DNA of 64,000 nt from Candidatus Latescibacterota bacterium (GTDB taxonomy: Bacteria; Latescibacterota; UBA2968; UBA8231). Below, one piece after another: positions 8,460-58,192 of the stretch. Positions within the stretch are counted from its first letter, which is position 1. Each line of letters opens with the position of its first letter. The stretch spans positions 3,872,001-3,936,000 of the forward strand of contig CBDETK010000013.1 in the NCBI GenBank assembly GCA_965242865.1, given 5' to 3'. Below the pieces are notes generated by a model. The model saw only the letters and a list, made by a program, of their open reading frames with translations, searched no databases and was not told the DNA's origin. The translations under genes and the position numbers were made by a program.

Positions 8460-8468
8460 AGGGGTCAG

Positions 8469-10119: not shown

Positions 10120-10155
10120 GAATTCACGCGGCGAGACGCGCTTGACGAAGCTCGC

Positions 10156-11124: not shown

Positions 11125-11368
11125 CGGGCTCCTTTCGCTGGGGCGTGATTGAGAGGCCGAAAAAGCGTGCGCAAGGCCGTGGACTAGGCACCCGACGGAG
11201 GGCGAGACGCCCTCCATCCTAGACGAATCGGGGCACCAGAAAGACCTAGGCGTCGCGTACTTAGGCTTGAGCCTCTAAGGATTGGCGCAATATACCGCTC
11301 AGCACCAGCGGCGACAATCAGTTGACCGGATGGGCCTTTGGCGCGACTATTTCCCTACCGGATAACCG

Positions 11369-11755: not shown

Positions 11756-11853
11756 TCGCCCGCCACCTCGTCAACGCCGAACGCATCTGCCGAGAATTGG
11801 AAAACATCGAGGAGGTCGTCACTTATCTGCGCGCCCTCGGGTATCTAGCGTGA
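11752..11853 (+). pseudogene. 33-codon remnant: probable HEPN-toxin N-terminus fused to an unrelated C-terminal tail
   Basis: ATGA overlap with MNT; translation MIARHLVNAERICRELENIEEVVTYLRALGYLA*. Confidence 0.5.
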
Positions 11854-15825: not shown

Positions 15826-15894
15826 TATTGCTCCAAAGGTGTCCAACCGGGAACAGATATTATAAAGCAAAACCTTATTACACGCTCCCCGGAT

Positions 15895-17805: not shown

Positions 17806-18009
17806 TGATACGACAATCCTCTAACACTGTCGAGCCAACGATGTCCATGCGTAACCTAACGGATTATAGAAGAATCAAACGTTAGCAGCAAAAAGGCCAG
17901 CGAAACCCGCTCGGCCCCCAGTGCCTTGACGCGAAAGAGCAGATTAAACCGAGCAGAGGAAGCAATGACGGAATGGGCAAACGCCCCCGAAGGCCGCACA
18001 GCGGCTGGC

Positions 18010-20211: not shown

Positions 20212-20274
20212 TGCCAATCCAAATGTGCCCTTATGGGAGTCATCTTTTTTCTCTGCCACCCGCTAGCGCCTTTC

Positions 20275-32412: not shown

Positions 32413-33294
32413 GTGAGTGACAGCACCAGAGATCGTGTTCCAAGAGATCGCGATCTAATAAAGCCGACACTTGATGCCCTCCATCGGCTAGGGGGCAGTG
32501 CTAACAATAGAGAAATCGTCAATCAAGTAATTGAAGATATGAGCCTGTCTGCTGCTATCACTCAAGTCCCGTATAGCGGAAAAGCAAATAGGACCGCGCT
32601 GGAGGACAAATTGGGTTGGGCGCGAACCTACCTCAAAAAGTACGGTTTGATCGACAGTTCGGAGAGAGGCGTGTGGTCTCTTACTGCTAAAGGGCGGCAA
32701 ACACAAGACGTTGACCCTCAAGCAGTTTGTGATTCTTATCATCAAGACCTGAGACAGAAACGAGCTCGCAAACAAACGAAACCTGAGGAAGACGCCTCAG
32801 CCGAAGAAATCGAAACTTCAGCCGAGGAGACCGCTTCTTGGCGTGAACATTTGCTCGACACCCTCCGCAACATTCCTCCCGACGCATTTGAACGACTGTG
32901 CCAAAAGCTACTGCGGGAATCGGGCTTTATTGAGGTTGAGGTCACGGGAAAATCGAGCGATGGCGGAATCGACGGGCACGGAATAATCCGCCTTGCAGGG
33001 CTGATTAGCTTTCCCGTGCTGTTCCAGTGCAAGCGCTACAGCGGTAGCGTTGGCGCGAGCGTGGTCAGGGACTTTCGCGGCGCGATGGCGGGACGGGCGG
33101 AAAAGGGCCTTATATTGACGACAGGTGGTTTCACAAAAGAGGCTCAACGAGAAGCCACCCGGGATGGAGCGACGCCAATAGACTTGATTGACGGGGACTT
33201 GCTAATGGATAAAATGAAAGAACTCAATCTCGGCGTGTCCGCCAAGATGGTCGAAGTCGTGGAAGTGGACGAGGATTGGTTCGCGTCGATTTAG
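32413..33294 (+). CDS. mrr: Mrr-family type IV restriction endonuclease
   Basis: Mrr_N 'LGWARTYLKKYGLI..RGVWSLT'; catalytic 'FERLC..DGGIDG..QCKRY..VRDFRGAM'. Confidence 0.9.
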   Translation: MSDSTRDRVPRDRDLIKPTLDALHRLGGSANNREIVNQVIEDMSLSAAITQVPYSGKANRTALEDKLGWARTYLKKYGLIDSSERGVWSLTAKGRQTQDVDPQAVCDSYHQDLRQKRARKQTKPEEDASAEEIETSAEETASWREHLLDTLRNIPPDAFERLCQKLLRESGFIEVEVTGKSSDGGIDGHGIIRLAGLISFPVLFQCKRYSGSVGASVVRDFRGAMAGRAEKGLILTTGGFTKEAQREATRDGATPIDLIDGDLLMDKMKELNLGVSAKMVEVVEVDEDWFASI

Positions 33295-33375
33295 ACAGCT
33301 CAAGGAGTGGAGGATTTGGACTTGCCGAAGACTACGGCAGAGGCGGCGGATTTTCCGACGTGGTATGACCGCGCC

Positions 33376-34362
33376 TCACCCATGTTCTGACTCCGTTCTG
33401 TGCAATATCGTTTCAGTCATTCTTTTGAATTCCATGTAACATTTAGAAACGCTTTGGGCGTGTGAGCCAATGGCACCATCAGCCGGTTTGAGAAAAAAGA
33501 CTGGTTTTCTCGATTCCTGCGCCATGGGCATCAGGCTCTGGTAATGGCGAACTAGCCCCACCTGATTGGAATCGTCGTCTATAGATGTAAAATCTTCTGT
33601 TTGTGCAAGAACGTATTTCAGATACGTAGCCGGTATTCTCTCGACCCAGTTTTGATACGCTTTAACAGGACGCCTTTTTCGCTCGATATGCTGCATGACA
33701 ATATACCCTGCTGGTGTCATTGCGCCGGAGGGCATGTTCAGGTTGTCTGGTTTTTGTTGCAGCCTCTGTTTCCAATCACGACGCCACGTTTTCAGCGTAG
33801 GCCCGAGGTTTTTGAGACCCTGAAGAGAATAGAGGTCAGGAGCCAGAGGGGAGATTACGTAGTCTGCGGCAATCAAGGACGAGCGGTTGATCGCCCCAAG
33901 ATTTGGTCCGACATCAATCAGAACGATATTCGCACCAACCTGCTCAGCAGCCGTATAAATGACCCGGTAAAACGCAGTGATAGCACGGAATGCGGCAGGG
34001 TCACGATCTAAGCAGCGAGGCCAACTGTCCGAGAGCTTATCCTCAAATCGGGACAGCCCAAGATCACCAGGAATCAGGTGCAGGCCGTCCTGAATGATCT
34101 CCGTATGCGCCGGCGCAATATCGCCAGTTCCTTCTAAAATTGGCGAAATACAAGGCAGAATACTCTGGTGTTTTTGCTCCTCCTCCGGCCAGATTTTTTC
34201 CAGTCGCTCTTCATCCAGAAACATGCTCGAAAGATTAGCCTGCGGATCCAGATCAGCTGCCAGTACCTTTTGCTCCAGCTCCATCATCATCCAAGCAATA
34301 TGATAGACCAATGTCGTTTTCCCCACACCGCCCTTGTTATTGAAAAAGGCGATTGTTTTCAT
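33376..34362 (-). CDS. ParA/Soj-family ATPase (orphan)
   Basis: NNKGGVGKTT deviant Walker A, DLDPQANL, 'LIDVGPNLG'. Confidence 0.88.
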   Translation of the reverse strand: MKTIAFFNNKGGVGKTTLVYHIAWMMMELEQKVLAADLDPQANLSSMFLDEERLEKIWPEEEQKHQSILPCISPILEGTGDIAPAHTEIIQDGLHLIPGDLGLSRFEDKLSDSWPRCLDRDPAAFRAITAFYRVIYTAAEQVGANIVLIDVGPNLGAINRSSLIAADYVISPLAPDLYSLQGLKNLGPTLKTWRRDWKQRLQQKPDNLNMPSGAMTPAGYIVMQHIERKRRPVKAYQNWVERIPATYLKYVLAQTEDFTSIDDDSNQVGLVRHYQSLMPMAQESRKPVFFLKPADGAIGSHAQSVSKCYMEFKRMTETILHRTESEHG

Positions 34363-35570
34363 GGCTTGGCCTCCAACACCGTTACAAGAAAATAGGATAC
34401 TTGGCTAATATCAAATTCAGCAGGCTGGTTGCCGTTTTTTTGTAGGGCAGCTTGGACTGTCGCTATCCCACGCCCGAACTGATTGACATACGCAAGATTT
34501 TTCATGGCCTCGGCTAGTTTGGGATTCCGGTAATCGTTCTGGTTCGGGAAATCAGCGGCAGCACCGTAAAGCCCGCCCGGATTCTGAATTTCGATCCGAT
34601 CAGAAAACCAATAAAAACGAATCGGTGCATTCGACTGATAGTCGCGATGCATAACCGCATTCATCAGTAATTCGCGAATGGCTCGTCGTGGGTACGGAGT
34701 TACCTGTTTTTCTCGTAACGCGGAGAGCGGAATGGGACGGGATGGAAAGAGCGTTTGCATGAACGCATCTAATGCGTGAAGGCTTGTAGGCAGATCGCCT
34801 GTGAATCTGCGCTCGTCAAGAATGTCAGATTCCAATTCGGCCCCAGCATAGCGGACGTATTGAATATACGAACCTGGCAACCAATTTTGTGGCACTTCCG
34901 AAAACAACAGGGCTCCAGCGTTCGTGACACACTGGTTCTGTACGTCCCATAACCCCAGAGCGGCCATTTGCTGCAATATGTCGCGATTGTTCTCTTCGAT
35001 GGCCTCTGGAGCCAAGGCAGCGTTTCGGTAATCATGGAAGAGTGAATAGACGATCTGATCTTGGCCACAACCAATACAGAGCCGCATATCAAATGTCTTG
35101 GCGCGGTGTATCCGACGCTCGATGAGTATGCGTTCGTCCTGTTCGTTAGCGATGCCCTGACGCGGACCAACTCGGATCCAGACCCGCCCGCGGTAGCGGA
35201 CCGGTGGCATATCAGACGGCTGTACTTCCACCACAGCAATATCGCCTTCGGGGAAAGAGCGTTTTTGAACGGTAAGAGACGGCAGGGGAACAATTTGACC
35301 GGAGTCGCGATGACTGGCAAGACCCTGAAGAAGCTGATCTGTGATCTCAATACCTGCAATTTTTCCGGTTTCATCCTCTGCACCGATAAGCAGATAGCCT
35401 GGTTTTCCGTGATTCGGCAGGTCGTTGGCAAAGGCGCAAATAGCGTTGCAGAATTTGGCCGTATCTTTCGTGGAAACGGTACGCTCCACATTGTCGGCCT
35501 CTATATCTGTCAAAAGAGCCTTGATTTCTTCATCGGTCAACACGGGACCTCTCCTTTGGCGAGCAATCAA
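34359..35570 (-). CDS. Schlafen/AlbA_2 domain + HATPase-like ATP-binding protein
   Basis: 'EADNVER..AICAFAND..GYLLIGAED'; 'RELLMNAVMHRDY..IEIQNPGGL..RNPKLA..GRGI'. Confidence 0.8.
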   Translation of the reverse strand: MIARQRRGPVLTDEEIKALLTDIEADNVERTVSTKDTAKFCNAICAFANDLPNHGKPGYLLIGAEDETGKIAGIEITDQLLQGLASHRDSGQIVPLPSLTVQKRSFPEGDIAVVEVQPSDMPPVRYRGRVWIRVGPRQGIANEQDERILIERRIHRAKTFDMRLCIGCGQDQIVYSLFHDYRNAALAPEAIEENNRDILQQMAALGLWDVQNQCVTNAGALLFSEVPQNWLPGSYIQYVRYAGAELESDILDERRFTGDLPTSLHALDAFMQTLFPSRPIPLSALREKQVTPYPRRAIRELLMNAVMHRDYQSNAPIRFYWFSDRIEIQNPGGLYGAAADFPNQNDYRNPKLAEAMKNLAYVNQFGRGIATVQAALQKNGNQPAEFDISQVSYFLVTVLEAKP

Positions 35571-43694: not shown

Positions 43695-44119
43695 GTGCGC
43701 AACCCGCGCTCGGCCACCAAGGCGTGCAACCGCGCTAAAAACGGGGCGATGTCCGGCGGTTGGCCGGCCGCGTTGTGGAGGACGATGTCCGCACCCGTTG
43801 CGGCGTGGAACACGGTCGCGGCCGGCGACAGGCTGACCTTTTCGACCTCGGCCCACGTCAGCGTCTGCCGCCCAAACAGGCCCTCCTCCACGGTCACGCC
43901 CTCCGGCCCTAGCCAGACCAAGCGGCGATGGAGGCGATGGACGAAGAAGGCCGCCGCGCAGAACGCCGCCAGCCCACAGCCGAGCACCGCCAGCCCATAG
44001 CCGAAGCCGCCGCGCTGGAAAGCGATGGTGCTCAACAGCAACTGGCCAACGCCCAACAGGGCAAAAATTAGACGCTGGTTGGCGCCGGGACTGGTGGATA
44101 GGTCGAACCGTTCAGCCAT
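43691..44119 (-). CDS. Hypothetical membrane protein (2 TM + bacterial PH-like domain)
   Basis: 142 aa; two hydrophobic helices then 'LGPEGVTV..LTWAEVEKV'. Confidence 0.6.
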   Translation of the reverse strand: MAERFDLSTSPGANQRLIFALLGVGQLLLSTIAFQRGGFGYGLAVLGCGLAAFCAAAFFVHRLHRRLVWLGPEGVTVEEGLFGRQTLTWAEVEKVSLSPAATVFHAATGADIVLHNAAGQPPDIAPFLARLHALVAERGLRT

Positions 44120-44873
44120 GCGCGGTCCGCATCTTTAGCATCTCATCGTCCAGTCCATATCGAACCATATCGATCCGGTCGCTGTGCTGAGCAATAAAGG
44201 CACCAGTTGTCACCGAAAGATGGAACGGAAAAAACGCTGGATGCTTCAGCAATAAGCTCAGTGCTCCTTGGCCTTCGGGAGTAGTGTGCAATGCGGCCTC
44301 AAACATCAGCATAATCAAGCTATGATCTGCCAAGTTCATCGGCGCGGACCTTTCGTAGCAACCTTTAGCCTCAGCGTCTTTTAGTACTCCCCAAGCAACA
44401 AAGGAGCGGATGACGTAACGCGCATACCGGCTTATAGTGGACCGGTCACCGTACTGCTCCTTGAGACGATGGACGATTTGCGCTTGGGTGACTTGGTCTT
44501 GCAGTGTCAATAGGCGTCCCGTCTGCCACGCTACGTTGAACCAGAAAGGATAGACAGCCGTGATCATTCCCCAGTGAATGGCCAGTCCCATTGATGGATG
44601 TGTGCGGAGAAAGGCTAACGCTGAGTCTCTAAAAGCGACCAATTCGGGGGCTGGAGCGACCCAGATATTCACTAGGTTAGCAACGACGCATCTGCGGGTT
44701 TGCTCACTACGATCCCCTCTCGAGCCGCTCCCTTTCCGGTCAGTTAGGTAATCGTGCAGTTCTTAGCGGATCGCTTGGGTGCCAAGCCCAGCGAGCAGCA
44801 GACCGGCAGACTTTTGCATCCACTCAAAGCGGATGACCTGCTTGATTCCAATGACCTGATGTCGCTTGCCCAT
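44112..44873 (-). pseudogene. brxA: BREX-3 BrxA with an in-frame nonsense codon
   Basis: ATG 44873 overlaps the pglZ stop; MGKRHQVIGIKQVIRFEWMQK..AIR*ELHDYL with TAA at 44763-44765 (codon 37), then in frame with ORF 44112..44672; terminal position in the operon. Confidence 0.72.
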
Positions 44874-46873
44874 CACCGCGTTCTCCTTTCAAATCTCACT
44901 AAAGGCACGATGACTTCCTCAAGGGCGATTCCGCCGTGACCAACTATTGAATTGCCGGGGTTCCCAAACGCATCTCGGCCGCCAGCTACGAGGGGAAAGT
45001 AATTGTCGGGTAGGCCGACCAGCTCCCACTCGCAGGCCGATGTAAAGGCGGATGCTAGTTGTGAACGGAGTTCGGACGTTTGGTACACACGAGCTCTCGC
45101 ACCGCGTGTTTCCGCGAGCACTCCCTCACTAGGCCGCCCTTTGCCCTCGCATTCGATGTTGCCGTGATCGGATGTCAGCCATATATCATAGTCGTGATCC
45201 AATAGATAGTCGATGAGCTTCCCAAGATATCCGCCTCGGCACCACTGCGCGACCTGACCGTGCATACCCACAGACCCTAGCCGCATACCGTGCATTATCT
45301 TATCGACCATATCCACAACCAAGCCCACGGCCTTGGTCCGGCCGGGATTAACCGTTTTATCGAGGTCTTTACTTACGTCACCATTGCCTAATCCGCGCTT
45401 ATAGGCGATCTCAGGACGGGAAAGACCGTTGGCCATCCAGAATTGCTGCCAGAGCTTTTCTTCGCTAGCGGTCGAGTTAATGGATGCAGGAAAAAACTGC
45501 GGCGGCTTACCGGAAAAGATCGCCTGCCGGGATACGGAAGTTAGCGTCGGAATCCAAGCAAAGGTCGCGGACTCCCGCATGACGCAACCAATGTTTTGCC
45601 CATTTAGAACCTGGCGTACAGTCACCCACTGATCGAGGGAAAGGCCATCGGTCACAATCAGTGCAACGCGCTTTTCGTCAGAGTCTTCCATATCGCGAGC
45701 CAACCGTCGCGCCAAGTGATGTCCCATCGCGGGACGGATTGGCGGCAGGGTAATAAGGCTGGCGTAGTGCTCCCTCAGCCAACTGGCAAAGGTCCTGTTC
45801 AACTCATCGCCTATCTCTCGCCATTGGGATCGTTGTGTACTGATGCTTCCACAATGGATCAACGCAGAGAGTTCGGCCCATTTTAGCGCAAAGCCCGTCC
45901 AGTCGTCATAGCGAGATTCTACTGTCGGCAGCTTTTTCTCAACGAGTTCAAACAGACGGGAGATACGTTCCTCATCATCGCCTGCGTCGGCTTCGACGAC
46001 TCCGCAGCGAATCCACGGACTTGCATCTACATCTACAGCAAGGTTAGTCGCTTGAACAGGAACGAGCATTCCTTCGACGAACAGATTGTCGATGTAGATT
46101 CTGATATTTTGGTGCTCGAATGGCAGGAGGTCCGGCCCCTCATACTCAAGTTTATATTCGCGCCGACCTTCTCCAATCCGTTCAGCGTTGCCAAGCCTGT
46201 TTAGGAAAACCGGCCAGCGCTCCTGTAGGAACTCAAAAAACGCCTTATCGTCTGGTATGATTTCATCTAAAGGCCATGAATGAAACGCATGTTGCTGTCG
46301 CAGTACCTGCACGAGCCGATCAGTCAGTTCGTGAGGAACTTGGATTTTGCCGTAATGTAGGCGGAGCAAGGTGCTTAGAAGTTCTACCCCGTTGTCAATC
46401 TGCTCTGCCACGATGCCGAACACTTGGCGAAGAATGAAGTCCTTGGTGGCGTTCTCACCTAGGCGACCCGGCGGCAATTTGCACTGTGCGTCAAACAGGG
46501 AGTCGAGGAGGCTTAGGTCTAGTTTCTCGACGACTGGATAGCTCAGATCGGGAAAGAGCTTGCCAAGATTGAAGGATAGTTTCTTTCCGGCTTGCAGGAG
46601 GTCGTAAGGCAACGACGTTAGTTTTGTATCTTGACGGCGAAGAATGACCACCAGATCCGTGTACTCGCCGCGATCCCAAAGCGAACGGTATTTCGCCTCA
46701 TAAACATACCTGAACTCGACCGGATCTTTGAATTCGATGAGATCAAACCCGCGCCGACGCAACTCCAGTGCCAGTTTTTCTTCGGCTAAGAGGCTGTCTG
46801 GGTCGGCGACTACGGTGAGTTTGCTGACCTCGGGAACAAATTCGTTCAGGATAGAGTCTCGCCAGTTACTCAT
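44873..46873 (-). CDS. pglZ: BREX-3 PglZ alkaline-phosphatase-like protein
   Basis: 'VADPDSLL', 'TDGLSLDQW', 'AWIPTLTSVSRQAIF', 'TSDHG', 'HGGIALEEVIVP'. Confidence 0.9.
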   Translation of the reverse strand: MSNWRDSILNEFVPEVSKLTVVADPDSLLAEEKLALELRRRGFDLIEFKDPVEFRYVYEAKYRSLWDRGEYTDLVVILRRQDTKLTSLPYDLLQAGKKLSFNLGKLFPDLSYPVVEKLDLSLLDSLFDAQCKLPPGRLGENATKDFILRQVFGIVAEQIDNGVELLSTLLRLHYGKIQVPHELTDRLVQVLRQQHAFHSWPLDEIIPDDKAFFEFLQERWPVFLNRLGNAERIGEGRREYKLEYEGPDLLPFEHQNIRIYIDNLFVEGMLVPVQATNLAVDVDASPWIRCGVVEADAGDDEERISRLFELVEKKLPTVESRYDDWTGFALKWAELSALIHCGSISTQRSQWREIGDELNRTFASWLREHYASLITLPPIRPAMGHHLARRLARDMEDSDEKRVALIVTDGLSLDQWVTVRQVLNGQNIGCVMRESATFAWIPTLTSVSRQAIFSGKPPQFFPASINSTASEEKLWQQFWMANGLSRPEIAYKRGLGNGDVSKDLDKTVNPGRTKAVGLVVDMVDKIMHGMRLGSVGMHGQVAQWCRGGYLGKLIDYLLDHDYDIWLTSDHGNIECEGKGRPSEGVLAETRGARARVYQTSELRSQLASAFTSACEWELVGLPDNYFPLVAGGRDAFGNPGNSIVGHGGIALEEVIVPLVRFERRTR

Positions 46874-46884
46874 TGAATCGTGTC

Positions 46885-47934
46885 TTATTCTGGTATCGAA
46901 AAATCGTTGTGATAAACGACAGATGCTAACTCGATACGGCCGTCGATACAGGCCCAATAGTGGAGATGGAACTCTTGATCTATATCGCGGCGCTGAGCCT
47001 TATCAGAACCACGCATACGCTGTGGATCATTTCCACCCTGTCCTATCCTGAGTGTGTGAACAGCGGACATGTTCTGGCCTTCAATTGTTTCGACTATAGA
47101 GCGGAGTATTTTTGGTGGTAAGGAATCCCCTGTATTATTGCAACATTGTTGGCAAGTTTCACGAAATTCAGGACCAATACTTGGGACTTGGATAGTTTCC
47201 CATTCTGGCTCCTCGCTTTGGGAAAGAGCCTGTTTGAACGAGGCGATTCGGATTGAAAGTTCAATTTCAAGATCGTCGGAAGCACCAACAAGTATCACCG
47301 ATTCGTTGAGGCACTCTATCAAGCCGCTAAAATCGTCGCATACCAGTACATCGCCTTCAAAAAATTCAGGCGGACAGGGTAACTCTGGAATATCATCTCT
47401 ATTGTGTTCGAGATCGTGAATTTGTGCTCTGACTTGAACGACTTGTTTTGGGGCTTTTCTTAGTACGAGAGAATGTCCCCCCAGAGGCTGTGGACAGTAC
47501 TTTCTCAAAACTGCAATCAGGATGATACAGCGTACTAAATCGGACCGGAGACCATCATGTACAGTAAGGTTAATAACGTCCGGCTCTGTTACAAGGTTTT
47601 CAGATAAAACTTCTTCGACTTGATAGCGGTTCTCGAAAGACGGAATGAGCGTCAGCAACTTTTCTGTAATCGTGGCAACAGTATTTACGTCGTACTCGAC
47701 GATTCTGTGCGCCTTAAAGAGTTTACGAAGATGCTCTCGAAATGGGTAAAGCTTATTAGAAATAAGGGCCTCTGACGCCCTTTCACTCATGTAGATGGCT
47801 ACCCATGTCTCATCAAGTAGTTTGCTCCAGTCTAGTAAGGTATCTACATACTGGAACGCATCATCTTTGGTACAGGAGACATGAGGGACGGCAAGAACAC
47901 TTGCATCGATTGTCACTCCGGGTAAACTCCTCAT
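46885..47934 (-). CDS. Hypothetical protein, possible C-terminal RelE-like nuclease domain
   Basis: 349 aa, ATGA overlap with the ATPase; C-terminus 'RRDIDQEFHLHYW..IELASVVYH'. Confidence 0.55.
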   Translation of the reverse strand: MRSLPGVTIDASVLAVPHVSCTKDDAFQYVDTLLDWSKLLDETWVAIYMSERASEALISNKLYPFREHLRKLFKAHRIVEYDVNTVATITEKLLTLIPSFENRYQVEEVLSENLVTEPDVINLTVHDGLRSDLVRCIILIAVLRKYCPQPLGGHSLVLRKAPKQVVQVRAQIHDLEHNRDDIPELPCPPEFFEGDVLVCDDFSGLIECLNESVILVGASDDLEIELSIRIASFKQALSQSEEPEWETIQVPSIGPEFRETCQQCCNNTGDSLPPKILRSIVETIEGQNMSAVHTLRIGQGGNDPQRMRGSDKAQRRDIDQEFHLHYWACIDGRIELASVVYHNDFSIPE

Positions 47935-49850
47935 CGGTCTTCCTTCCGACTGGCTTTTCTCTTTTTAGCGGCAGCACGAAGGATTTCCTCCGCCTGCTCC
48001 TGCGATTGGTCAAAAAATCCCTCAGGCCAGTCGGAAATAGCACCATATTCGTTAATTACTACTTCCCGGAAGGATGAGCTTTCGGCTGGCTTTTCGACAA
48101 AGTAGATTTTTGCTTGGTTGTTCAATTCGTTTTCTGAGGATGCCGCAGCAATTCGGAATCTTAGGCGGTCAATAAAGTATTCACTGTGGGTCTCGACGAT
48201 GCACTGTTTATTACATAACGCCATAGAGAGGAAGAAGTCTCCCAACAAGGTCTGAACCTTTGGATGTAGATGTAGCTCTGGCTGTTCAAACACTAGGGTT
48301 GAGTCGGTATCGGCCAAGAGGCCCATCACCAAGATAGGAAGAACCTGACTTACACCAACGCCGACATGTGTAAGGTCGTGAGTGCTATCTGAGCCGGAAA
48401 GTGCCACCTTCAGTTCATGACCCAGCTTACCTTGGTCTCGACTCTTTACAGACTTCGCGACTTTAAGATATTGGAGCCAGTCAACCACCGCGACTTCAAG
48501 TTTTCTGATGACCTTTCTACTATCTATGAGCGAGGATTTGAAATTGGCTGAAGGTATATACTTGATTTTTTTGTTTTTATGTAGCTCAAGAATTGAGGCC
48601 GTGTGCTCCCCACGCAGACCGACATCATACGGATCGGCTGCTGGAGTAAGAGGATATAAAGGCTTTGGAGCATCCCTTAAAGGTCCGAGGTATTTTAACG
48701 ATGAGGTAAAGAAATCATCTAAGTAACCTGTGGCCTCAGCAATCAAATGAGGCGGGTGAACTTGTACGAATCTGCGAGACTCAGACATCGAATCATTAGA
48801 AGCCTTCATTGCCTCATAAATTAATTCGGAAAGGTCATTCTGCGCTCTCAGTATTCGTTGGACGTTCTCTCGGCCTTCATCAGACAGTTTGAGAAAATTA
48901 TCATGCCAAGTACTAAGTTTCATTCCCTCTGAACCTATACCCGTACCCAGCAACATTTCTTGTTGAGGCTCATCGTCGAAAAACTTATCAAAGTCGATAG
49001 TGTCCTCCAGAACATTCTGCAAAACAGCAATTACTTCCTGAGTAAGAAGGATATCTCTCCTTGGGACACTCCTATACCTGACAGACCTACGGCCGGTGTT
49101 CGTCAGAAAACGAGCTATTTCGTTGGCATCCTCTTCGATTGTATCAATTTCGCAAGTAATTCGCTCAGAAAGAAAATGACGCATAACGCATCCTATGGGC
49201 CGTGCCGACATGAGATCCTCTTTCATCTCGGCCATAGAGCTATCATCAAAATCGACCTCGTACGCCATACTGGCGCGTACTGATTCATCTCGTTCACTTA
49301 TAGTACCTATTTCATCAGTTTCAGAGACATTCTTCTCAGAATGGCGAATAGAGATTTTAGCCTCTTGATCGACATTATCCTCGTCCCTGATCGTACAGGA
49401 TAACTGCGTTGCAAAAAGTCTCGGTTGTACCTGAAATTCGTCTCGCTGGGAGCTTGAGGGAGCAGCGTCAAAAGATAATTCGCAGGCGATCTTTTGAAAC
49501 TGCTTGATCCACGGATAGTAGTAGATATAGCTAGTGCGACGAGATCTGCTCGCTAACGATTTCTTCTGTCCAGATAGAGGACGACAAGTGCATCCGATGG
49601 TTATTTGCTCCGACTCGCTGCCGTTCGATTTCAAATCGTCAAACTGACCAAGGCTAGTAAGCGCACCGTTCAAAACAACCGATCTGGAATCGACTTTATG
49701 AGCCAGCGTTTGAGCAACGAGTAGAATCGATTGGATAAACGTACTCTTGCCGCTACTATTCGCACCAGCGAAAATTGTTAGCGGTCCAAGATCCAATTCG
49801 GTGTCCTCGCGAATTGACTTGAAGTTGGATACCTTCCATTTGGTAATCAT
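47931..49850 (-). CDS. ABC-type ATPase (AAA_21/AAA_15) with C-terminal DUF3696
   Basis: 'NFKSI', GANSSGKS, 'VGVGVSQVLPI', 'EQPELHLHP', 'ETHSEY', 'WPEGFFDQ'. Confidence 0.85.
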   Translation of the reverse strand: MITKWKVSNFKSIREDTELDLGPLTIFAGANSSGKSTFIQSILLVAQTLAHKVDSRSVVLNGALTSLGQFDDLKSNGSESEQITIGCTCRPLSGQKKSLASRSRRTSYIYYYPWIKQFQKIACELSFDAAPSSSQRDEFQVQPRLFATQLSCTIRDEDNVDQEAKISIRHSEKNVSETDEIGTISERDESVRASMAYEVDFDDSSMAEMKEDLMSARPIGCVMRHFLSERITCEIDTIEEDANEIARFLTNTGRRSVRYRSVPRRDILLTQEVIAVLQNVLEDTIDFDKFFDDEPQQEMLLGTGIGSEGMKLSTWHDNFLKLSDEGRENVQRILRAQNDLSELIYEAMKASNDSMSESRRFVQVHPPHLIAEATGYLDDFFTSSLKYLGPLRDAPKPLYPLTPAADPYDVGLRGEHTASILELHKNKKIKYIPSANFKSSLIDSRKVIRKLEVAVVDWLQYLKVAKSVKSRDQGKLGHELKVALSGSDSTHDLTHVGVGVSQVLPILVMGLLADTDSTLVFEQPELHLHPKVQTLLGDFFLSMALCNKQCIVETHSEYFIDRLRFRIAAASSENELNNQAKIYFVEKPAESSSFREVVINEYGAISDWPEGFFDQSQEQAEEILRAAAKKRKASRKEDR

Positions 49851-49853
49851 TAG

Positions 49854-52651
49854 CTATTCGTCTCCCGTTCTTGTTACTGCCTGATCGTACCACAAAAGCA
49901 ACTTTGGGTCTTCTTCGAGAATGTTGTTGGGGATTTTCTCGGCCAACGCTATAATCGTAGCGTAGTCGCGCTCTTGATAGGCTTTTTTGAAGCCTGCACG
50001 GACAGCTTCCAGCCGGAAGACCCTAAGTTTCTTCTTGGCCTGCTTGTACTCCTCAAACTCCTTGAGAAGTGCCTTCTCGCGCAGCTTCTCCAAGTCGCCT
50101 GCCTTATTTGGGTCGGGCACATACCAGCGATTCTCGGCCTTGGCCTTCAGCAATGGGTTGTCCTTGGTCAGATTGCGTAGCTCCTTGAAATTCGACGAAA
50201 GATAGCTGTGAATCTGACTGGGCACTTCACCTTTGCTGTCGTGACGCAGAAAGTTCTGCTCCAGCATTTCGGACAGTTCTGGCAGCTTCTCGTGCTTTTG
50301 CCAGCCGCTGATCTCTCTCAGAAACTGAGGGTGGATGTCCTGAAAAGTCTGAGGTTTCTTGGTGAACTGCTGCTTGAGCCACTGGATGGCCGAAGCCTCG
50401 TCGGAGACGAAAAGCTGAAGCTGGAGAACCTCCTTGACCGTCATTCGCTTCTTATCGTACTCAGCCGCTTGGTCAGGTAGGAAATACATACCATCGCGTA
50501 GAGGGAATCGCTGTTCCAGACCAGCGTAAAACTCAGCAGCGGACAAGGGAACCGTCACCCCCCGCTGGACGTGGAAGGCAACCATGCGGTCGAAGAGGAG
50601 GAAATCCTGACGCTCTGCGATTATCTCACCTTGACCATCCTTTGAAATGAAAATAGGGAGTTGCTTCAAGTGAGTCCTGACAAAGTCCCAAACGCCCGCT
50701 TCAGTGCCTGATTCTAGACAGAAGCGTTCCTCAAGGCCACCATTCGGTTTATATGCAGAAATAACAAGGTCCTGCTTGATAGCGGTTGGTGTCATAACTG
50801 CCTTGAATGAGTGTTGCTTTTTATCGAGCGATGAAACATTGGCCACAACAAAGCCACTTTGCTCCAGTGCGGCCTGAATCGCATTCCATACTGATGCCTT
50901 TGTATTCGAAAATTCCACCGTCAGCCATCTACTTGGCTTTAAGATGCGGTAATACTCTGAAAATATCCGCTCCATGAGTTCACGGTAATCATCGATACTC
51001 TTTCCCTGAGATTTACTCACAATCGCTTCGGCCTTCTGATTTGTTACTGCTCCTAACAATCCCTCCCAAAAGAAGTTCAATTCGGAATAATCGAAGTTAT
51101 GACCGAACGGAGGATCGGTGAATATGTAGTCTACTGTAGAATCACAGATCTGTCGAAGATTTCCAGTATCTTGGGTGCTTATGACATGGCCTCGCTGAAG
51201 ATCGACAGGTGGAGTTAAGCTGTTGGCAATTGTTGACGCATTGCGCCGAAAAGTCTTCAAAACATGTAGCGGTGTAATCAAAGAGCTAACGTACAAAGTT
51301 CCCGATAGCGGCCCACCTCCTTTTCTATCAGCACGAAACCGTCTCATTCTTGACATATAAGGCAAGGAAGCAGTAAGGCAAAAAAGCAGCACCTGACTTA
51401 GATTTTTATTTTTAGAGTAACTCTGTATCTGACGCAGTAGAGCAGAGACGAACAAATGCTCACGTGGGGTGAAGAACTGATGTAGATGAGTAATGCCAAT
51501 TGGAACATTGCGCTGAGTTTCTTTGCCGTCGATTAGTGCAATCGCTGGTAGGCCATAAGAGCTAAGAAGGTCGGTTGCAATACCGATGCGCTGCCTATCT
51601 TGATCATCGGGTAGTTTCTCGTATCTTGTCGATCCTATACTGTAGTTAATGAGAACAGGGGCAATCCGAACGTGCTGGATAGCCTGTTTTAGGACTGGAT
51701 CAAAGCTGATCGTATATACTGGTTCCCACTTTGATTCTTGAACTAATGCCTTGCAGTACGGGCACTTTAAGTTTGACCGAAGGGAATCGTTTTGCTCATC
51801 TACGGCTACGTTATAAAGCGTGGTTTCAGTAGTGCATTCAGGACATCTGATAACATCAGAATAGAGCGTGAATTCAACGGTACCTAGCTGATCGTCTCGA
51901 TGTTGATGATGCTTGTGCTCAACTCTCTTCCTGTCGCGTACCTTCCAGCCGTTGTGGTCGGTTAAGTATAGATGGCCAAGCTTGTCCTCAATGTCGGCAC
52001 ACATTTCCTCAACGGCTGCCAAAAGATCTCTTCGATAAACTGGACGAAGCAAGTTCCCTGCGATAAATGTGGCGATAGGCGACAGGTCCGAAAGGACTAC
52101 CCAGCGTTGTCCCCATAGAAGAGCTTGTCGTAGTGACCCCTTAATTCTGCTAGGATCTTTACATAAGGCCGCCGCCACGCCGGTCATCCCCGTCCCACAA
52201 AACCCGTCGAAGACTATGTCGCCCGGCTCGGTTGGAGTATGTACCGCATGATCGCCTTGTGCGGCACCTTGGTATGGTATGAGTGAGCGTTATAAATGGG
52301 ATCGTTCTTACCTTCGCTCACATCTGTAGCAAAAGGCTCACGATGGTAATCTTCAGCCTGTTCCGGCTTCTGCGCCTCCCATTCGGCGATGAAGTCCGCA
52401 ATCCACGGATTCGGACAAGCGGTATAATACGGCGGATCACTGAGATTCAGAATGTCCTCATCCTCGCCAATCGGGAATCCCTCAATCTTGCGAAACTCGG
52501 GGTCCTTCAACTTCTTGCGGAGTTCCTCGATAAAGTGAGCACGGCGGGCTTCGTCGTTTTCAAAGGTTATGCCGAGGCAAGTTACCGATCCGTCATTCTG
52601 ACCTTCTCCGGTTGCTGATCCAAACTCTATGTTCTGCTGTTCTTGATTCAT
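49854..52651 (-). pseudogene. pglXI: BREX-3 PglXI DNA methyltransferase, frameshifted
   Basis: N-part 'LSDPPYYTACPNPW..HSYHTKVPHKAIMRYIL'; about 4 bp missing near 52233, before DGFCGTG; C-part contains 'DYIFTDPPF'. Confidence 0.82.
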
Positions 52652-52689
52652 CTCAAACTTTCCAGTTAGGCAAGACGATTTTTCTGGTC

Positions 52690-55600
52690 TTACCTTTCCA
52701 CTACGATCCGCACCTTTGCCGGGTCCTTGCCCTTGGTGAGATCATCAATATATCCGTCAAATCGGCTCTTCATCTCTGCCGGGGTCGCTGGGCCATCGGT
52801 TACCTTCAGGGCCGTTTGCATATCCTGTGTCTGGATGGCGACTTTGATCAGGCCAGAAAGCACTTCTTTGAGGGCATGTACAAAGCTACCGCTTAGGGGG
52901 ATTGGTAGCTCACGCGACTGAATGAAGGCCTCCAGTGCTTCGCGGTCATCCGTCTTCAACAAATCCATGTTGGCCTCGGTAATTGGGACCGCCAAGTTGC
53001 TGAGGAGGATGGAGGTCCAGTCTTCCCCTATCTCATCAAGTTGCTTATCCATAGCATCGATATGCTGAGAGCTTGCAACCGTGCAGGTTTCGGTAGAGGG
53101 CTTAAACCCGCAGTGCAGGCAAGTCGGCGTTGCATCTAACTCTTGGTTGGTCAAGGCAAAGCAGCTTTTCAGAGCCAGTAGGCGATCCCGGAAATCGGTA
53201 AGCTGTTGCCGAGGCATTAGATCAATTTCGGCTAATTTGACTAAGACTTGTAACCTCGGGTCGTTGAGCAATGCTGCCTTACGCTGGTCGTCGTTTACTC
53301 CCAAACGGACCTTGGTGTGTAAGCCGATATAAATGACCGTGTAGTCCCTCTTGAGCTTTTGTATTTCTACGCCGATGGCTTGGGACTGTTGGGGCTCGAT
53401 CCGACCCGCTTGGCTGAGAGCATTCAGGACGTTCTGCCGGGTCGCCTTAATCCGGCCCACCCAGTCATGTTCGGCAGGAAGTGCCGCTTCAGCCGCGACC
53501 AAATAGGAGGCCGTCGGGGCATGGTCCATTACGAACTCGCGCAAAGCGTCCAACTCATCCAGAGCCGTTAGGGCTTCTTTGTGCGCCATGATTTCCGGCA
53601 CACTGTGGCGGAAGTTCTTCAATCTGCCAGGGGAAGAATACGCCTGGAGCGATTCAAAGAAGGTTTTGGCTTTCTCTAAAACACCGGCCCGGCTGGCTAG
53701 GACAGTGCTGGCGAGCAGGTCCTGTCCCCAGAAGGAAAGCCCTTTCTGCATATCCCGTTGAGCCATGACGATGCGCCGGACCGTCTTGCCAATGGCCTGC
53801 TGCATACCTTGGACTGGTTCGTCTTTACCTTGGGCAACAAGTTGAGCCATGCCCGGCGACAAGCCAAGCAGTTCAAACAGTTCTCTGATGGCGGGCAGGT
53901 TCCATTCCTTGGGCTGCTCCAAATGCTTGAAGCGGATCAACTCGTCTATGCCAGTGGCGGCAAGTTGCGGTAGCTCGGTGGCGTCGAATTTTTTGCCCGG
54001 AATTGCGAACACGATGTCGCCGGAGTACACCAAGGCAACCAAAATGACCGCTACCCATTCAGGTTCAAGGCGGAAGCCGCTGGGGTCCATGAATTCTAGC
54101 CCGTGGTCGTCTTGAATGATCTCACTGCGATTTACCACTTGGCCGTGCCCCTTAGCCTTTACAACATCAATAATGAACTGGGTGTACTTTGATTTGTAGG
54201 GGTCCATCCTCTCGCCATCGAGCAGTTCCAGCGCATCCAGCACGGCCGTGGCCTGCTTGGTGCGGTTCTGTCCGGCGATAGCCCGCAGCGCATCTTGGGC
54301 GGCTTGGGCGCAGTTGTTACCCGTAATCAGTACCGAAAAGAATGGATAGCCAGGAGCCTGATTTTCAAAATTCGGGGCCAAGCAGATGCCCGCAATGGTA
54401 TTGATCAGATCGCGGAAGTTGATGATTTCGTGGGGCAACAGGCCCGACAGGTCGCGGATGGATTGGCCCTTGGCCCACTCGGGGATGGACTTCGTGCGGC
54501 CTTGGTAGGTGACCTCAAAGGCACTGGTCATCTGCGTTTGTAGCCACCGGACTAGCTGGCGCAAAAAGCCGTTGGCCTTAGCCTCATAAGTGGCTTTGGC
54601 TTGGGCCGCGGAAATGCCTGCGAGGTCCAAAGCCGCCGCATAATTTTTCAGCGCGGTCTGAAATTCCTCGTCGGTGCCTTTCAGGCGAAAGAAGACTTCG
54701 TCGCTCGCTTTGTGCTCCTTGAACTGGGGCGGGTCATTTGGCTGGATAAAGTAAAGGTAGAAGTCCCGCTGGGGTACGGCGGTGGAGCGCTCGTTGGGTG
54801 CGCCAAAAAACAGATACCCGGAACGAGCGGCTTTGTGCTCCTGCCAGATGAGTTCGTGTTGCCAGATTTTGTAGCCGGTTACGTAGGTAGCGTCTTGGCA
54901 CTCCATGACCCGTTTGAGGGCCTCGTAGTAGAAGCGGTCGAGCCGAGTGTTATCGAGGCTCTCTGCTCGCTTGTCAATGATGGCGTCAAAGTCTTCGGTC
55001 TTTTTTAAGTCCAGATAGTATTGGCCATTATCCTTGCTGAATGAAATGAAGCTGAATGAAATGAATTGTCCGCTAACCGCTTTTTCGATTGCGCGCAGCA
55101 CGGTTACTACGTGGGTTTGCAGATCTCTATCGGGTTCATCGCTGCCCAATTCCTCAATCAGGGGGTCAAAAAGGCAGAGGCGGTCGCGCAACTCCTCGGC
55201 GGATGCGCCCATGGGCGTATAGATGTCACCTGTGGTCAGGCGATGGACGGACAGTGCATGGATCAAGCGCAGGGCCATCGGTTTGTACTGACTGCGGGCG
55301 ATGGCGTTTTCGATGCGGGATTCCAGCACTTGGCTGCAATCAATGACTGCTCGGATTTCGGGAATGGCACGGAAGGCCGCGTTCTTCCTGAGAGTGTTCC
55401 AGTAGCTATCGAAGGCAATTAGGCCGGGTCGGTCCTGCGGAACCTCTTCGTCCATAATGTCTTTCATGCGTATGGACAGGGTCTTGAGCACCTCGCGCTT
55501 TTCGACCACAGTGACCCGCTCAAAGGTCTCAATGTAGTCGGGATGTACGGGAAAGAGATTGACGAATTCATCCATCTGCTCGTTGAGCCCGCCGTAGAAC

Positions 55601-56445
55601 TTGGAAAAGGGCATTAGATATTCGCGGATATGCGCCTGTTGCTCGGCGGTCTTTTTGAGCAGACGCTCGGCCACTACGAACTTGACGTCGTTGCGGGCGA
55701 TCAGGATTTGCTCGAAACGGTCTTTTACCCGACGGAGACTACCGGCGACAAAGCCAAAGCGGGGGCTGTCGAAAATGGCTTCCTGTACCCCGGCCATAAC
55801 GCGGAAGCGTAGGTCCTTGCACACTTCGCCCATTTCGCGGAGAAAGTTGAGGTCGAGGATCAGTTCTTGGTCCCTACGGCTACGGAGATAGTCTAGTAGC
55901 TCATCAACTACCAGCAGCAGACCGTGTTCGGGGAAAGCCTCGCCGAACTTGTCCATCAGGTCTTCAAAGGCCCGCTTGTGACTGGCAATTTCGTTCACCT
56001 CGGGGAATATGTATTCCACGCCGAGCTTTTCGAGATATTCTTCCAACTCAGAGACCAAGATGTCGCGCAAGGACATAGTGGTGGCCCCGATCTCGGTGCG
56101 GATGACCTTGAAGCGCCCGGCGATTTGTTTGACTGCGCCACGAACGCCGGGATGCTTCAATTCTTTTAGCAGAGAGGCGTCTGCGGCAAGGCTTGAAATC
56201 ATCGACATCAGGTGCGATTTACCGGTGCCGTAATTGCCGACGATCAAAATCCCTTTGTTATCGACAGGTTGGTCGAACTGCAACTGCGGGATGACAAGCT
56301 GAGTAAGCCGTTCAGCCATCTCCTCGGAAATGACGTAGGTTCTCACGAGATGGTGCGCGACACTGGACTTGTCCGCGTCGCGCAACTGAACAACCGACTC
56401 AATCGGGTCGAACTGAATAAGATCGCCGTATTTCATGTTGGTCAT
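52690..56445 (-). CDS. brxC: BREX-3 BrxC/PglY ATPase (DUF6079-type)
   Basis: 1251 aa; '[18 protein letters not shown]', GNYGTGKS, 'VVDELLDYL', late CxxC. Confidence 0.88.
55036..55065. repeat. Exact 15-bp tandem duplication inside brxC
   Basis: GCTGAATGAAATGAA twice, giving [10 protein letters not shown]. Confidence 0.9.
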
Positions 56446-56509
56446 GCTTGAGCTTGCCTCTCTACTCGTGGTTCGCGAATCATCCTAACGGACCGATCCG
56501 CATATTAAT

Positions 56510-57028
56510 TTAATATAGAGGGTTAGCTATTCTGTCGATAGGTTCCCCATTGACCGTCGTCGTTCCATCCACACGCACGATGAGCACATCGACCGAGTCA
56601 TATTCCTGGTACTCGGGATGCTCCCGCTCGGCGTATAAGAGCCTTCCTCCAGAAAACCTCCCGCTCCAAGAAGCCACCACGGCGCGGTTCCGCGAAATGT
56701 TTCGTAGCAGACTCAACGGGTCTTGCTCGAGATTTTTATCAAAGAGGATTTCGAGGTTATCGAGCACCACCGGCGGCTCAGTTTGGGCCGCGAGTTGCTT
56801 GAGGATATCCGGCATCCGCAATGATCGCTGCCGAGCCGTCAGTTCGAGCATCTCGTATGAGAGTACTCGATTGACATTGATAACTTGCGTACCGAACGCA
56901 TCGGCGACCTCTTGCAGGACGCCGGTCTTGCCGGAACCGCTCTCGGCCACCAGCAACACTAAGCGGTAGTACCGGTCATCGGCGACCTCAAGAGCCCGCT
57001 CTATTTGATCCTGAATCAGTTCAGCCAT
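56510..57028 (-). CDS. brxF: BREX-3 P-loop protein BrxF
   Basis: 'YYRLVLLVAESGSGKT', 'LDNLEILFD..QDPL', 'YAEREHPEY'; first gene of the operon. Confidence 0.85.
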   Translation of the reverse strand: MAELIQDQIERALEVADDRYYRLVLLVAESGSGKTGVLQEVADAFGTQVINVNRVLSYEMLELTARQRSLRMPDILKQLAAQTEPPVVLDNLEILFDKNLEQDPLSLLRNISRNRAVVASWSGRFSGGRLLYAEREHPEYQEYDSVDVLIVRVDGTTTVNGEPIDRIANPLY

Positions 57029-57031
57029 GGC

Positions 57032-58192
57032 TCAGCGCGGCACCAGCCAGTCCTCGTCTAATTCCATGCCAAAGCCCGGCGCGTCCGATGGGATCAAGCT
57101 CCCCTCTTGAGGCACGGCTGTGCCCGGGATGGTGGGGACTTCTTCGAGGGGGATGCCCGGGGCCGAGCCGAGCCAGTACTCGGCCAGGGGCGATTCCGGG
57201 AAGGCCAAGGCGAAGTGTTGGCCGTAGGCGGTGTTGGCCCCGCCGTGGGGGATGGTGACGAGGCCGGCCGCTTCGGCGATGTAGTAGATTTTGACGGCTT
57301 CGGAAAGGCCGCCGCACCACTTGAGGTCGGGTTGCAGCACGTCAACGCAGCGGTGTTCGACTAGCTGGCGAAAGGCATGACGGCCGTGGTGGTCTTCGCC
57401 GGTGGCAATGGGCACGTAGGGAGCGGCTCGCTTGAGCGCGATGTGGCCTTCGAGATCCGTGGGAATGAGCGGTTCCTCAATCCAGCGCATCTGGTAGGGC
57501 TTGAGCCGCTCGGCGACTTGAACGGCGTATTCGACGTTGTAGGACATGACCGCGTTGAGCATCAGCTCGCAGTCCGGGCCGATGGCCTCGCGCGCTTGGG
57601 CGACCTTGGCTTCGAGGCGATTGAGCCCTTCCTGCCCCTCGCGGTAGTGAACCGGGTTGGTGATCTTGAAGGCACGAAACCCCAGTTCGAGTCCCCAGTC
57701 GAGGTCGTCGCCCGTGGCGTAGAGTTCAAGGCGGTCGCGGCAGGGGCCGCCGAGCAGGCGGTACACGGGCTGGCCCAGCAGCTTGCCCTTGAGGTCCCAC
57801 AGCGCCAGATCAATGCCGCTTTGGGCAACGGCCGCGCAACCGGCATGACCGAGGCGCTGAGCAGCGCGCCACATCAGGTCGTTGAGAAATTCCGTAGCCA
57901 GACAATCGCGGCCCGTCAGCAGGGGTGCGAAGACTTGCTCGACGATGGCAGCCACTGGCTCGCCAAAGGAGCAGCCGCCCAAACCCCAAGTGCCGTCCTC
58001 GGCCACGATCTGCACCCATACCGGGCCGCCGCCCATGCCCGGCATCTGGCCGGGGAGACGCGAAAATTCTGGATACTTGTTGATCGGCAACGAGCGCGGT
58101 GCCCGCTGGTTCCAAGAGGGGCGGCGACCCGCTGTTTGGGGCGGGCGGTGCGGAAGCCGGAGGTCAACTACGCGGATGGATTGTATCTGCAC
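57032..58192 (-). CDS. L-rhamnonate-dehydratase-like enolase superfamily enzyme
   Basis: '[13 protein letters not shown]', 'WIEEPL', 'ATGEDH', '[10 protein letters not shown]', 'APGFGME'. Confidence 0.85.

Follow-up and report, generated by a model that had tools for sequence, protein, structure and literature searches.

In the window, a stretch of 64,000 nucleotides (nt) of the Candidatus Latescibacterota bacterium assembly GCA_965242865.1 (contig CBDETK010000013.1, positions 3,872,001 to 3,936,000 of the forward strand), two intact genes lie within a decayed type 3 bacteriophage exclusion (BREX) locus. One encodes an ABC ATPase that carries a DUF3696 region, the other a protein of 349 amino acids (aa) from an unannotated family, which we call P349 (the product of 46885..47934). 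We read this pair as a self-contained, ATPase-gated RNase module of the kind found in the Menshen and HEC-03 systems, without the DUF262 sensor NsnA, that probably causes abortive infection. We assign this reading a probability of about 0.6. The pair has outlived BREX in the window, where the helicase gene brxHII is gone, pglXI is frameshifted and brxA contains a stop codon; judged by these sequences, it is probably the only part of the locus that is still active. Two observations speak for an autonomous module. The pair occurs without adjacent BREX genes in eight related loci, beside other defence genes, and in a ninth (L023) with BREX remnants only; and a distantly homologous pair stands alone between IS5 copies on an Acetobacter plasmid.

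Two coupled genes between pglXI and pglZ

The pair occupies the following positions:

47931..49850, minus strand: NsnB-like ABC ATPase gene; 639 aa, ATG start, uninterrupted (listing of open reading frames, ORFs)
46885..47934, minus strand: P349 gene, a putative effector of 349 aa from an unannotated family; ATG start, uninterrupted (ORF listing)

As read from the sequence, 3 nt separate the stop codon of pglXI (TAG, 49854-49856) from the start codon of the ATPase gene (ATG, 49850). The TGA of the ATPase gene and the ATG of the P349 gene overlap by 4 nt (ATGA, 47931-47934), and the TAA of the P349 gene (46885-46887) is followed by 11 nt and the ATG of pglZ at 46873. We searched one genome per species with the P349 alignment and obtained 44 loci, which belong to at least 15 phyla and, in one case, to an archaeal metagenome-assembled genome (MAG). 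Where the start is resolved (29 loci), the overlap between the two ORFs is 4 or 8 nt in 27 cases, and the remaining two have the ORFs 1 nt apart; the ATPase and P349 are translationally coupled. The GC contents of the two genes (0.456 and 0.452) are below those of brxC (0.545), pglZ (0.532) and the flanking genome (~0.61-0.62). Over 25 loci the pair lies on average 5.9 points below brxC and pglZ (range of the difference: -0.15 to +8.65). We therefore consider the low GC content a family trait of the pair and not a sign of recent insertion in the window. A scan of 43900-57400 for promoters and terminators was uninformative, with counts no higher than chance in shuffled sequences (9 versus 10.5 and 15 versus 14.4).

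With these data we could confirm the description in the original prediction of two tightly coupled, uninterrupted and AT-rich genes, separated from pglXI by 3 bp and from pglZ by 11 bp, that are accompanied by neither a helicase gene nor a DUF262 partner. Of the 53 ORFs in the window that reach 100 aa, Pfam was applied to all but the one at 25-330, and none of these 52 has a DUF262 domain. Neither PADLOC, applied to 13 proteins, nor a tblastn search of the window's BREX region with BrxHII from the intact locus of Thiobacillus denitrificans DSM 12475 (L006) detected a BrxHII.

The ATPase belongs to the NsnB-like family

The DUF3696 assignment was also correct: Pfam matches AAA_15 (9.9e-27), AAA_21 (3.4e-17) and DUF3696 (1.1e-12). 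In the PADLOC library, in a version from 2023, the best match is NsnB (1.2e-74), followed by HEC-03B (2.3e-50), PDC-M55A (1.3e-44) and AriA (1.7e-31), the last of which covers the protein only in part. By these profile matches the ATPase is a member of the NsnB-like family. Three segments carry its recognizable motifs:

49740..49766, minus strand: Walker A motif GANSSGKST, residues 29-37; G29 and N31-S36 invariant in 32 aligned ATPases
48276..48290, minus strand: Walker B variant FEQPE, residues 521-525; invariant in the 32 sequences
47985..48122, minus strand: DUF3696 C-terminal helix region, residues 577-622; Pfam PF12476, 1.1e-12

In the same alignment a signature-like GVGVSQ (residues 497-502) upstream of FEQPE, the H-loop ETHSEY and, within the DUF3696 segment, W608, P609, G611-Q615 and E621 are invariant. 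The protein is full length in 39 loci and intact in the window. Residues 353-625 span positions 107-344 of the 345-position NsnB profile, which points to an insert of about 260 residues after the N-terminal P-loop segment; this is the variable part of the alignment. The only solved structure with a related sequence matched over the first 45 residues of an OLD-family nuclease.

P349 ends in a predicted RelE-like domain

P349 found no meaningful match in Pfam, PADLOC or NCBIfam, even at permissive E-values, nor among the sequences of the Protein Data Bank (PDB), whether searched as a single sequence or as a profile of 112 sequences. Its own family is large: 466 of 2562 candidates match at E <= 1e-3, the best 120 of them all 338-355 aa long and at least 68% identical, and an exhaustive search, counting one representative for each 50%-identity cluster, gathered 603, of which 435 fall below 1e-10. 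Nearly all members are about 349 aa long. A tblastn search of 72,556 plasmids and 50,697 phage records returned no match to P349.

An AlphaFold2 model computed from the 112-sequence alignment reached a pLDDT of 96.4 and a pTM of 0.91. In a Foldseek search of the PDB with this model, 14 of the 19 best rows are toxins of the RelE superfamily (HP0894/HP0892, YafQ, YoeB, RelE, ParE) with probabilities of 0.60-1.00 and TM-scores of 0.46-0.71 (normalised to targets of about 90 residues); the other five rows have probabilities of at most 0.54. The toxin match falls on the last ~100 residues. Foldseek against viral structures found no meaningful match. We divide the protein as follows:

47188..47934, minus strand: P349 N-terminal region, ~residues 1-249, alpha/beta by AlphaFold2 secondary structure; polar residues poorly conserved
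46888..47187, minus strand: P349 C-terminal RelE/YafQ-like (BECR) domain, ~residues 250-349, from Foldseek and conservation

Ten polar residues are conserved in at least 90% of the 112 sequences, and nine of these lie within 293-342: H293, R296, R308, R315 (100%), H325 (99%), Y326, W327, E335 and H342. The histidines and arginines among them (H293, R296, R308, R315, H325, H342), each conserved at 92-100%, lie either on the sheet or at the C-terminal end. Of the polar residues among the first 250, E101 alone attains the 90% mark; D10 is at 79%. Because the conserved polar residues cluster in 293-342, we expect any catalytic centre within the RelE-like domain and probably none in the N-terminal region. 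The latter contains no conserved acidic tetrad, which fits an inactive domain of some fold; a model of residues 1-248 alone, from a shallower alignment of 33 sequences, reached a pLDDT of 51. The RelE-like effector that had been proposed from the sequence is thus supported by structure, through the 14 Foldseek rows, but has no counterpart among the sequence models of Pfam, PADLOC, NCBIfam and PDB.

Relation to known defence systems

The closest known systems are Menshen, taken as NsnB-NsnC without NsnA, and the two-gene system HEC-03. In Menshen, NsnC consists of an N-terminal inactive PIN-like domain and a C-terminal effector, in the commonest type (PB-BECR1) a YafQ-like BECR RNase with a His-Arg-His centre. 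In a predicted NsnB4-NsnC2 complex two DUF3696 helices clamp the NsnC N-domain, and NsnB has the replacements DE -> EN and SGG -> GxG (PMC12065111). The window pair shares with this system an AAA_15 and DUF3696 ATPase with NsnB as its best PADLOC match, the absence of the DE dyad (FEQPE, hence EQ here and EN in NsnB) and GxG for SGG. As in the commonest NsnC described there, the overlapping downstream gene ends in a YafQ/RelE-like BECR domain with conserved His and Arg; this is a likeness at the level of fold and residue type.

There are also differences. No DUF262/ParB NsnA is present in the window or directly upstream of the pair in the BREX-embedded loci; in the window the NsnA position, directly upstream of the ATPase gene, is occupied by pglXI at a distance of 3 bp. 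Of the BREX-free loci, L024 is the only one with a gene of DUF262 type (HEC-06/Orf5), which lies on the opposite strand. The ATPase is ~290 residues longer than the NsnB profile, with the insert between profile positions ~100 and 107. P349 is unlike two canonical NsnC proteins and has no PADLOC NsnC match at E-values up to 10, a weak test given that NsnC families are reportedly highly diverse. The Menshen survey was seeded on the DUF262 domain of NsnA, and NsnA-less pairs are thus outside its scope; it places 27.9% of Menshen operons near BREX, restriction-modification (RM) systems or methylases (PMC12065111).

HEC-03, an Hma-embedded pair of an ABC ATPase and a PIN protein, is reported to defend, with both genes needed (bioRxiv 10.1101/2024.01.29.577857). 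The window pair likewise consists of a DUF3696-type ABC ATPase and a downstream effector embedded in another defence system, and its ATPase matches the HEC-03 ATPase profile second only to NsnB. In contrast, the HEC-03 partner is a small (~160-177 aa) VapC-like PIN protein, whereas P349 has 349 aa and a RelE-like C-terminal domain and matches neither the partner profile nor a partner sequence; the host system is BREX-3 instead of Hma.

BREX loci are also described to hold OLD-ABC ATPases with TOPRIM, HNH, PD-(D/E)XK or PIN nucleases (594 taxa for non-TOPRIM pairs), which are interpreted as backup suicidal effectors (PMC12839542). The window pair resembles these modules, PARIS included, as an OLD/AAA_15 ATPase with a nuclease-type partner, flanked by BREX core genes that share its strand. 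The partners named in the main text of that study do not include RelE/BECR proteins. P349 differs from the PARIS effector AriB in having no TOPRIM/DUF4435 match, and AriA profiles match the ATPase partly. Finally, the last ~100 residues of P349 resemble RelE/YafQ/YoeB/ParE type II toxins in fold and contain conserved His/Arg residues. P349 differs from these by the lack of a Pfam toxin match, by a 250-residue N-terminal fusion and by its upstream gene, which is not a small antitoxin gene but that of the 639-aa ATPase.

A tblastn search with the ATPase matched 68 plasmid records. An Acetobacter plasmid codes for a 605-aa DUF3696 ATPase, 49% identical over the aligned parts, whose gene overlaps a gene for a 335-aa protein. 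By hhalign (probability 97.9, E 4.8e-13, 315 columns) this protein is distantly homologous to P349; several of the histidines conserved in the P349 family are replaced in it. An Aeromonas plasmid contains a true HEC-03 (ATPase 7e-134 and partner 2e-24 on the HEC-03 profiles), and Acinetobacter and Pantoea plasmids contain canonical Menshen operons (DUF262, DUF3696 and a third gene). The P349 profile showed no significant hhalign similarity to the partners in a Bacillus two-gene system and in Pseudoalteromonas.

Overall, these comparisons support the proposal of a coupled ATPase and RelE-fold pair nested in type 3 BREX that resembles sensor/effector ATPase-nuclease systems. The pair had also been called undescribed. 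Literature searches (DUF3696, BrxHII, Menshen/NsnB, HEC-03, BREX-embedded ATPase with RelE) found no description of it, with the caveat that supplementary tables may list such loci. The novelty resides in the unannotated effector family and in an NsnA-less, BREX-3-linked arrangement not described in the texts consulted, but the class itself is known from Menshen, HEC-03 and the OLD-ABC modules.

Position of the pair and fate of the helicase

We sorted the 44 loci by tblastn with the window proteins and the intact L006 genes, by ORF calls and by PADLOC:

19 loci: complete BREX-3 with helicase, brxF-brxC-pglXI-ATPase-P349-brxHII-pglZ-brxA
8 loci (L003, L005, L008, L009, L016, L020, L033, L042): cut by the contig end, P349 immediately followed by the beginning or a portion of brxHII
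7 loci (L001, L036, L038, L012, L014, L017, L039): pglZ directly after P349
8 loci (L024, L025, L028, L030, L031, L041, L043, L044): no adjacent BREX genes
L023: BREX remnants only, namely brxF in 3 frames, brxC cut at 834 of 1243 residues and the last ~80 pglXI codons with stops
L029 (1 locus): too short to classify

The original prediction had placed the pair in the slot of brxHII, either as a nested abortive-infection or guard module or as the mark of a helicase-less BREX subtype, and had called for this survey of loci with and without the helicase. Only the loci that carry the pair are covered here, and they contradict the slot: the order pglXI-ATPase-P349-brxHII-pglZ is found in 27 of the 44 loci (the complete and the contig-cut ones), and the ~950-990-aa ORF after P349 scores above 1490 bits on the BrxHI/BrxHII profile in the three loci scanned. 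The pair adjoins pglXI in 34 BREX-embedded loci. In one clade of type 3 BREX it ancestrally sits between pglXI and brxHII.

Stubs of brxHII remain between P349 and pglZ in four of the seven loci without helicase, corresponding to residues 1-63 and 932-964 (L012), 1-48 (L017), 879-960 (L014) and 8-38 (L039). In L012 (11047-11325) an internal deletion brought the first 63 codons of brxHII next to its last 33 and left a short open frame. The BREX-free locus L025 retains the first 28 brxHII codons directly after P349. These stubs show that the helicase-less and the BREX-free states both arose by deletion. In a quick IQ-TREE phylogeny of ATPase plus P349 (39 rows, midpoint root), helicase loss requires four changes (at least two forced by starred branches) and loss of the BREX context five (at least three). 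In this tree the window falls together with L036 and L001, two loci from Latescibacterota MAGs (support 99 and 100), and all three have the helicase-less junction without a brxHII remnant.

A functional replacement of BrxHII by the pair, giving a working helicase-less BREX, would agree with the window, L001, L036 and L038, where pglZ follows P349 within 14-99 bp without a helicase remnant. We consider this explanation essentially refuted, since the pair and brxHII occur together in 27 loci and the stubs reveal deletion. Nor is there an enrichment: 7 of the 34 BREX-embedded pair loci lack the helicase (8 of 35 if the window is counted), compared with 217 of 919 type 3 systems overall. BrxHII is reported in 702 of 919 taxa with type 3 systems, so helicase-less systems were already known (PMC12839542). 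With a share similar to that of all type 3 systems, the pair is not associated with helicase loss. Moreover, the three Latescibacterial helicase-less loci each carry a further BREX lesion, as detailed below, and the notion of a distinct subtype has to be abandoned.

Two loci of the same clade have a second embedding site, between brxHII and pglZ. It is occupied in L019 (13938-15083) by a gene for a 381-aa protein with weak N-terminal matches to DRT/LmuA/Avs1a profiles and in L034 (13814-14518) by a 234-aa ORF without family match. In L044 the pair is followed directly downstream (11346-13198) by a gene for a 461-aa NsnB-like ATPase (PADLOC NsnB 1e-44) and a 155-aa ORF without family match, an arrangement that looks like two ATPase-effector modules in tandem.

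Decay of BREX around an intact pair

The BREX genes of the window are the following:

56510..57028, minus strand: brxF; PADLOC BrxF 6.3e-58
52690..56445, minus strand: brxC/pglY; PADLOC BrxC 1994 bits, Pfam DUF6079
49854..52651, minus strand: pglXI, in two ORFs (52214-52651 and 49854-52187); PADLOC PglXI profile positions 10-135 and 153-918
44873..46873, minus strand: pglZ; PADLOC PglZ 1009 bits, with profile positions 1-666 matched from residue 29 onward of the ORF as listed
44112..44873, minus strand: brxA, interrupted at codon 37 by a premature stop (44763-44765), from translation

Five of the six type 3 core genes are present (brxF, brxC, pglXI, pglZ, brxA) and brxHII is absent, so the core is not intact. 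Alignment of the DNA with L036 and L001 shows that 4 nt are missing from pglXI between 52232 and 52233, which shifts the frame just upstream of the FDGFCGTG motif for binding of S-adenosylmethionine. Codon 37 of brxA is a stop where L036, L001 and L006 have Gln (at Q38 of L006 BrxA by tblastn), and the ORF listing shows brxA only as a 186-aa C-terminal piece. Because the loss of the helicase is accompanied by these two lesions, BREX in the window is decayed and not a subtype. The pglXI gene of L036 is broken separately (ORFs of 229 and 775 aa), and brxF of L001 has two stops; all three helicase-less Latescibacterial loci therefore combine a further, independent BREX lesion with an intact ATPase and P349. 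As a separate observation on pglXI, ~1.2 kb in the middle of the gene cannot be aligned with L036 at the DNA level while the flanks are 90-92% identical, which suggests a swapped target-recognition domain.

The dN/dS ratios (nonsynonymous to synonymous substitution rates) of the two genes are 0.31 and 0.41 versus L036 and 0.31 and 0.28 versus L001, values that indicate purifying selection on the pair. Could the pair nonetheless be an inert leftover of a dead island? The broken BREX around it would suit this explanation, and so would dN/dS ratios (0.31-0.41 versus L036) that are no lower than those of the BREX genes. We find it highly improbable, as both ORFs are full length and keep all conserved motifs while three lesions strike their neighbours, and the ratios are well below 1. 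A further locus, L021, with many BREX frameshifts and an intact pair, was dropped as evidence: it comes from a long-read MAG, and by a rough estimate the contrast is non-significant.

Linkage to BREX, spread and occurrence without BREX

Pairwise distances for BrxC plus PglZ and for ATPase plus P349, computed for the window plus 20 loci in which brxC, pglZ and the genes for ATPase and P349 are all complete, correlate with a Mantel r of 0.972, and none of 2000 permutations gave a value as high. BREX-embedded loci stand on both sides of the midpoint root. The correlation means that, since the base of the clade, the pair and the BREX core have been inherited and transferred together as a single cassette.

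Near-identical ATPase-P349 cassettes (end branches of 0-0.06 changes per site) are found in L002, L004, L005, L006, L007, L009 and L010, at about 8086-11047 in the full-length loci, in records assigned to Thiobacillus, Lentisphaerae, Clostridiales, Verrucomicrobiia, Haliangium and Hydrogenophilales. This distribution suggests that the entire BREX-3 cassette has moved between phyla very recently, with MAG binning errors as a possible contribution. The archaeal MAG contig L042 (Syntrophoarchaeum) reads P349-brxHII-pglZ.

The pair is not a general component of BREX-3. Five plasmids among the 72,556, none of which has P349, carry an annotated brxF, and the three inspected have BREX-3 loci that lack the pair, namely a canonical locus, a helicase-less one and one in which another gene is embedded. 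Their BrxF proteins are only 25-39% identical to that of the window and thus belong to other sub-clades. In a different BREX-3 sub-clade, on a Roseomonas mucosa plasmid (L045), positions 20216-22090 between brxC and the methyltransferase gene code for a 624-aa protein annotated as "RNA-binding domain-containing protein", and a DUF262 gene lies just downstream of the BREX-3 locus.

The main rival to a self-contained module is an integrated arm of this BREX clade, that is, a co-evolved and functionally wired second layer or guard that fires when BREX is inhibited or overwhelmed. PglXI, BrxHII or BrxC, or else the ~260-residue insert of the ATPase, would then supply the sensing for which Menshen uses NsnA. 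In the 27 loci the pair keeps one position and one strand between pglXI and brxHII. This constancy, the adjacency to pglXI in the 34 embedded loci, the Mantel correlation and the presence of embedded loci on both sides of the root all agree with such wiring, as does the proposal that OLD-ABC modules act as backup suicidal effectors (PMC12839542). On balance we hold it to be unlikely. Co-divergence reflects shared inheritance, not shared function. Intact pairs persist in the 8 loci without adjacent BREX, in L023 with its remnants and in three loci with broken BREX, and the distant homologous pair is alone on its plasmid; intact pairs without BREX mean that wiring to BREX is not obligatory. The related HEC-03 is also reported to work with its two genes alone (bioRxiv 10.1101/2024.01.29.577857).

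The BREX-free pairs adjoin other defence genes, for example SIR2-HerA with type I RM, HEC-01A and HEC-06. This observation bears on another explanation, in which the pair is an addiction module of toxin-antitoxin type that stabilises the island, with the ATPase neutralising a RelE-like toxin and no role in phage defence. The RelE/YafQ-like fold of P349, translational coupling with the putative neutraliser upstream, persistence after decay of the surrounding BREX and the very wide horizontal spread of near-identical cassettes across phyla are all compatible with it. We judge it less likely still than integration into BREX: a 639-aa ABC ATPase is not a known type of antitoxin, its relatives NsnB and the HEC-03 ATPase come from systems reported to defend (PMC12065111; bioRxiv 10.1101/2024.01.29.577857), and the BREX-free pairs have defence genes around them.

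Proposed mechanism and points against it

We infer the protein binding, RNase activity, trigger and defence phenotype of the pair from the related systems. In a self-contained module of this kind, the NsnB-like ABC ATPase would oligomerise and hold P349 through its C-terminal DUF3696 helices, which would dock on the N-terminal region of P349. A phage cue would alter the nucleotide state or the conformation of the ATPase. The RelE/YafQ-like domain of P349 would then be released or activated, cut RNA, stop translation and abort the infection.

Several results weigh against this proposal. The E-values of the whole-chain Foldseek search of the PDB are weak (best 3.3e-2, none <=1e-3), and P349 matches no RelE, ParE, YafQ or YoeB sequence model in Pfam or the other libraries. 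Searches of the ESM Atlas with both halves of P349 gave values of 0.78-0.83, below the level reached by shuffled proteins; the clusters under this threshold include some annotated as YoeB or ParE (13-15% of members), which we treat as leads only. No PIN structure stands among the PDB rows listed for P349, and a docking domain like the inactive PIN of NsnC stays hypothetical. The P349 profile is also unrelated by hhalign to NsnC from the Acinetobacter and Pantoea plasmids (probability 0.9 and 0.2) and to the HEC-03 partner from Aeromonas (probability 1.0). The dN/dS ratios of the pair are not below those of the BREX genes (0.16-0.50), and the pair itself is broken in two loci, by a frameshift in the ATPase gene of L031 and by the loss of the first ~127 residues of P349 in L043. 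Lastly, the tight co-divergence (r 0.97) is equally compatible with functional dependence on BREX.

Other features of the window

A second islet of low GC content (0.50-0.52) lies at 32413-35570, ~9 kb from the BREX locus. It codes for an Mrr-type restriction endonuclease (Mrr_N and Mrr_cat), a ParA-like AAA_31 ATPase and a Schlafen AlbA_2 protein with HATPase_c_4, and may be another defence cluster. On the minus strand at 13674-20259 are three tandem paralogues with glucose/sorbosone dehydrogenase (GSDH) domains, two with fn3 and one with cytochrome c, which are unrelated to the pair.

Implications

Type 3 is the least studied BREX type, and P349 represents a large, strongly conserved and wholly unannotated effector family. 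Together with a Menshen-type ATPase, it has one constant position in a BREX-3 clade that has spread among many phyla. Current annotation tools would label the locus in the window as an incomplete BREX and overlook the pair that is probably active. If the pair were a wired second layer after all, inhibition or saturation of BREX would be converted into translational shutdown of the RelE type, by a built-in guard that is carried with BREX-3 across more than 12 phyla and an archaeon and is able to outlast BREX. The pair also provides a compact two-gene model for how DUF3696 ATPases gate RelE-fold RNases without a DUF262 sensor. It may equally serve to examine whether embedded modules guard their host system or hitch-hike with it, and why they outlive the system that surrounds them.

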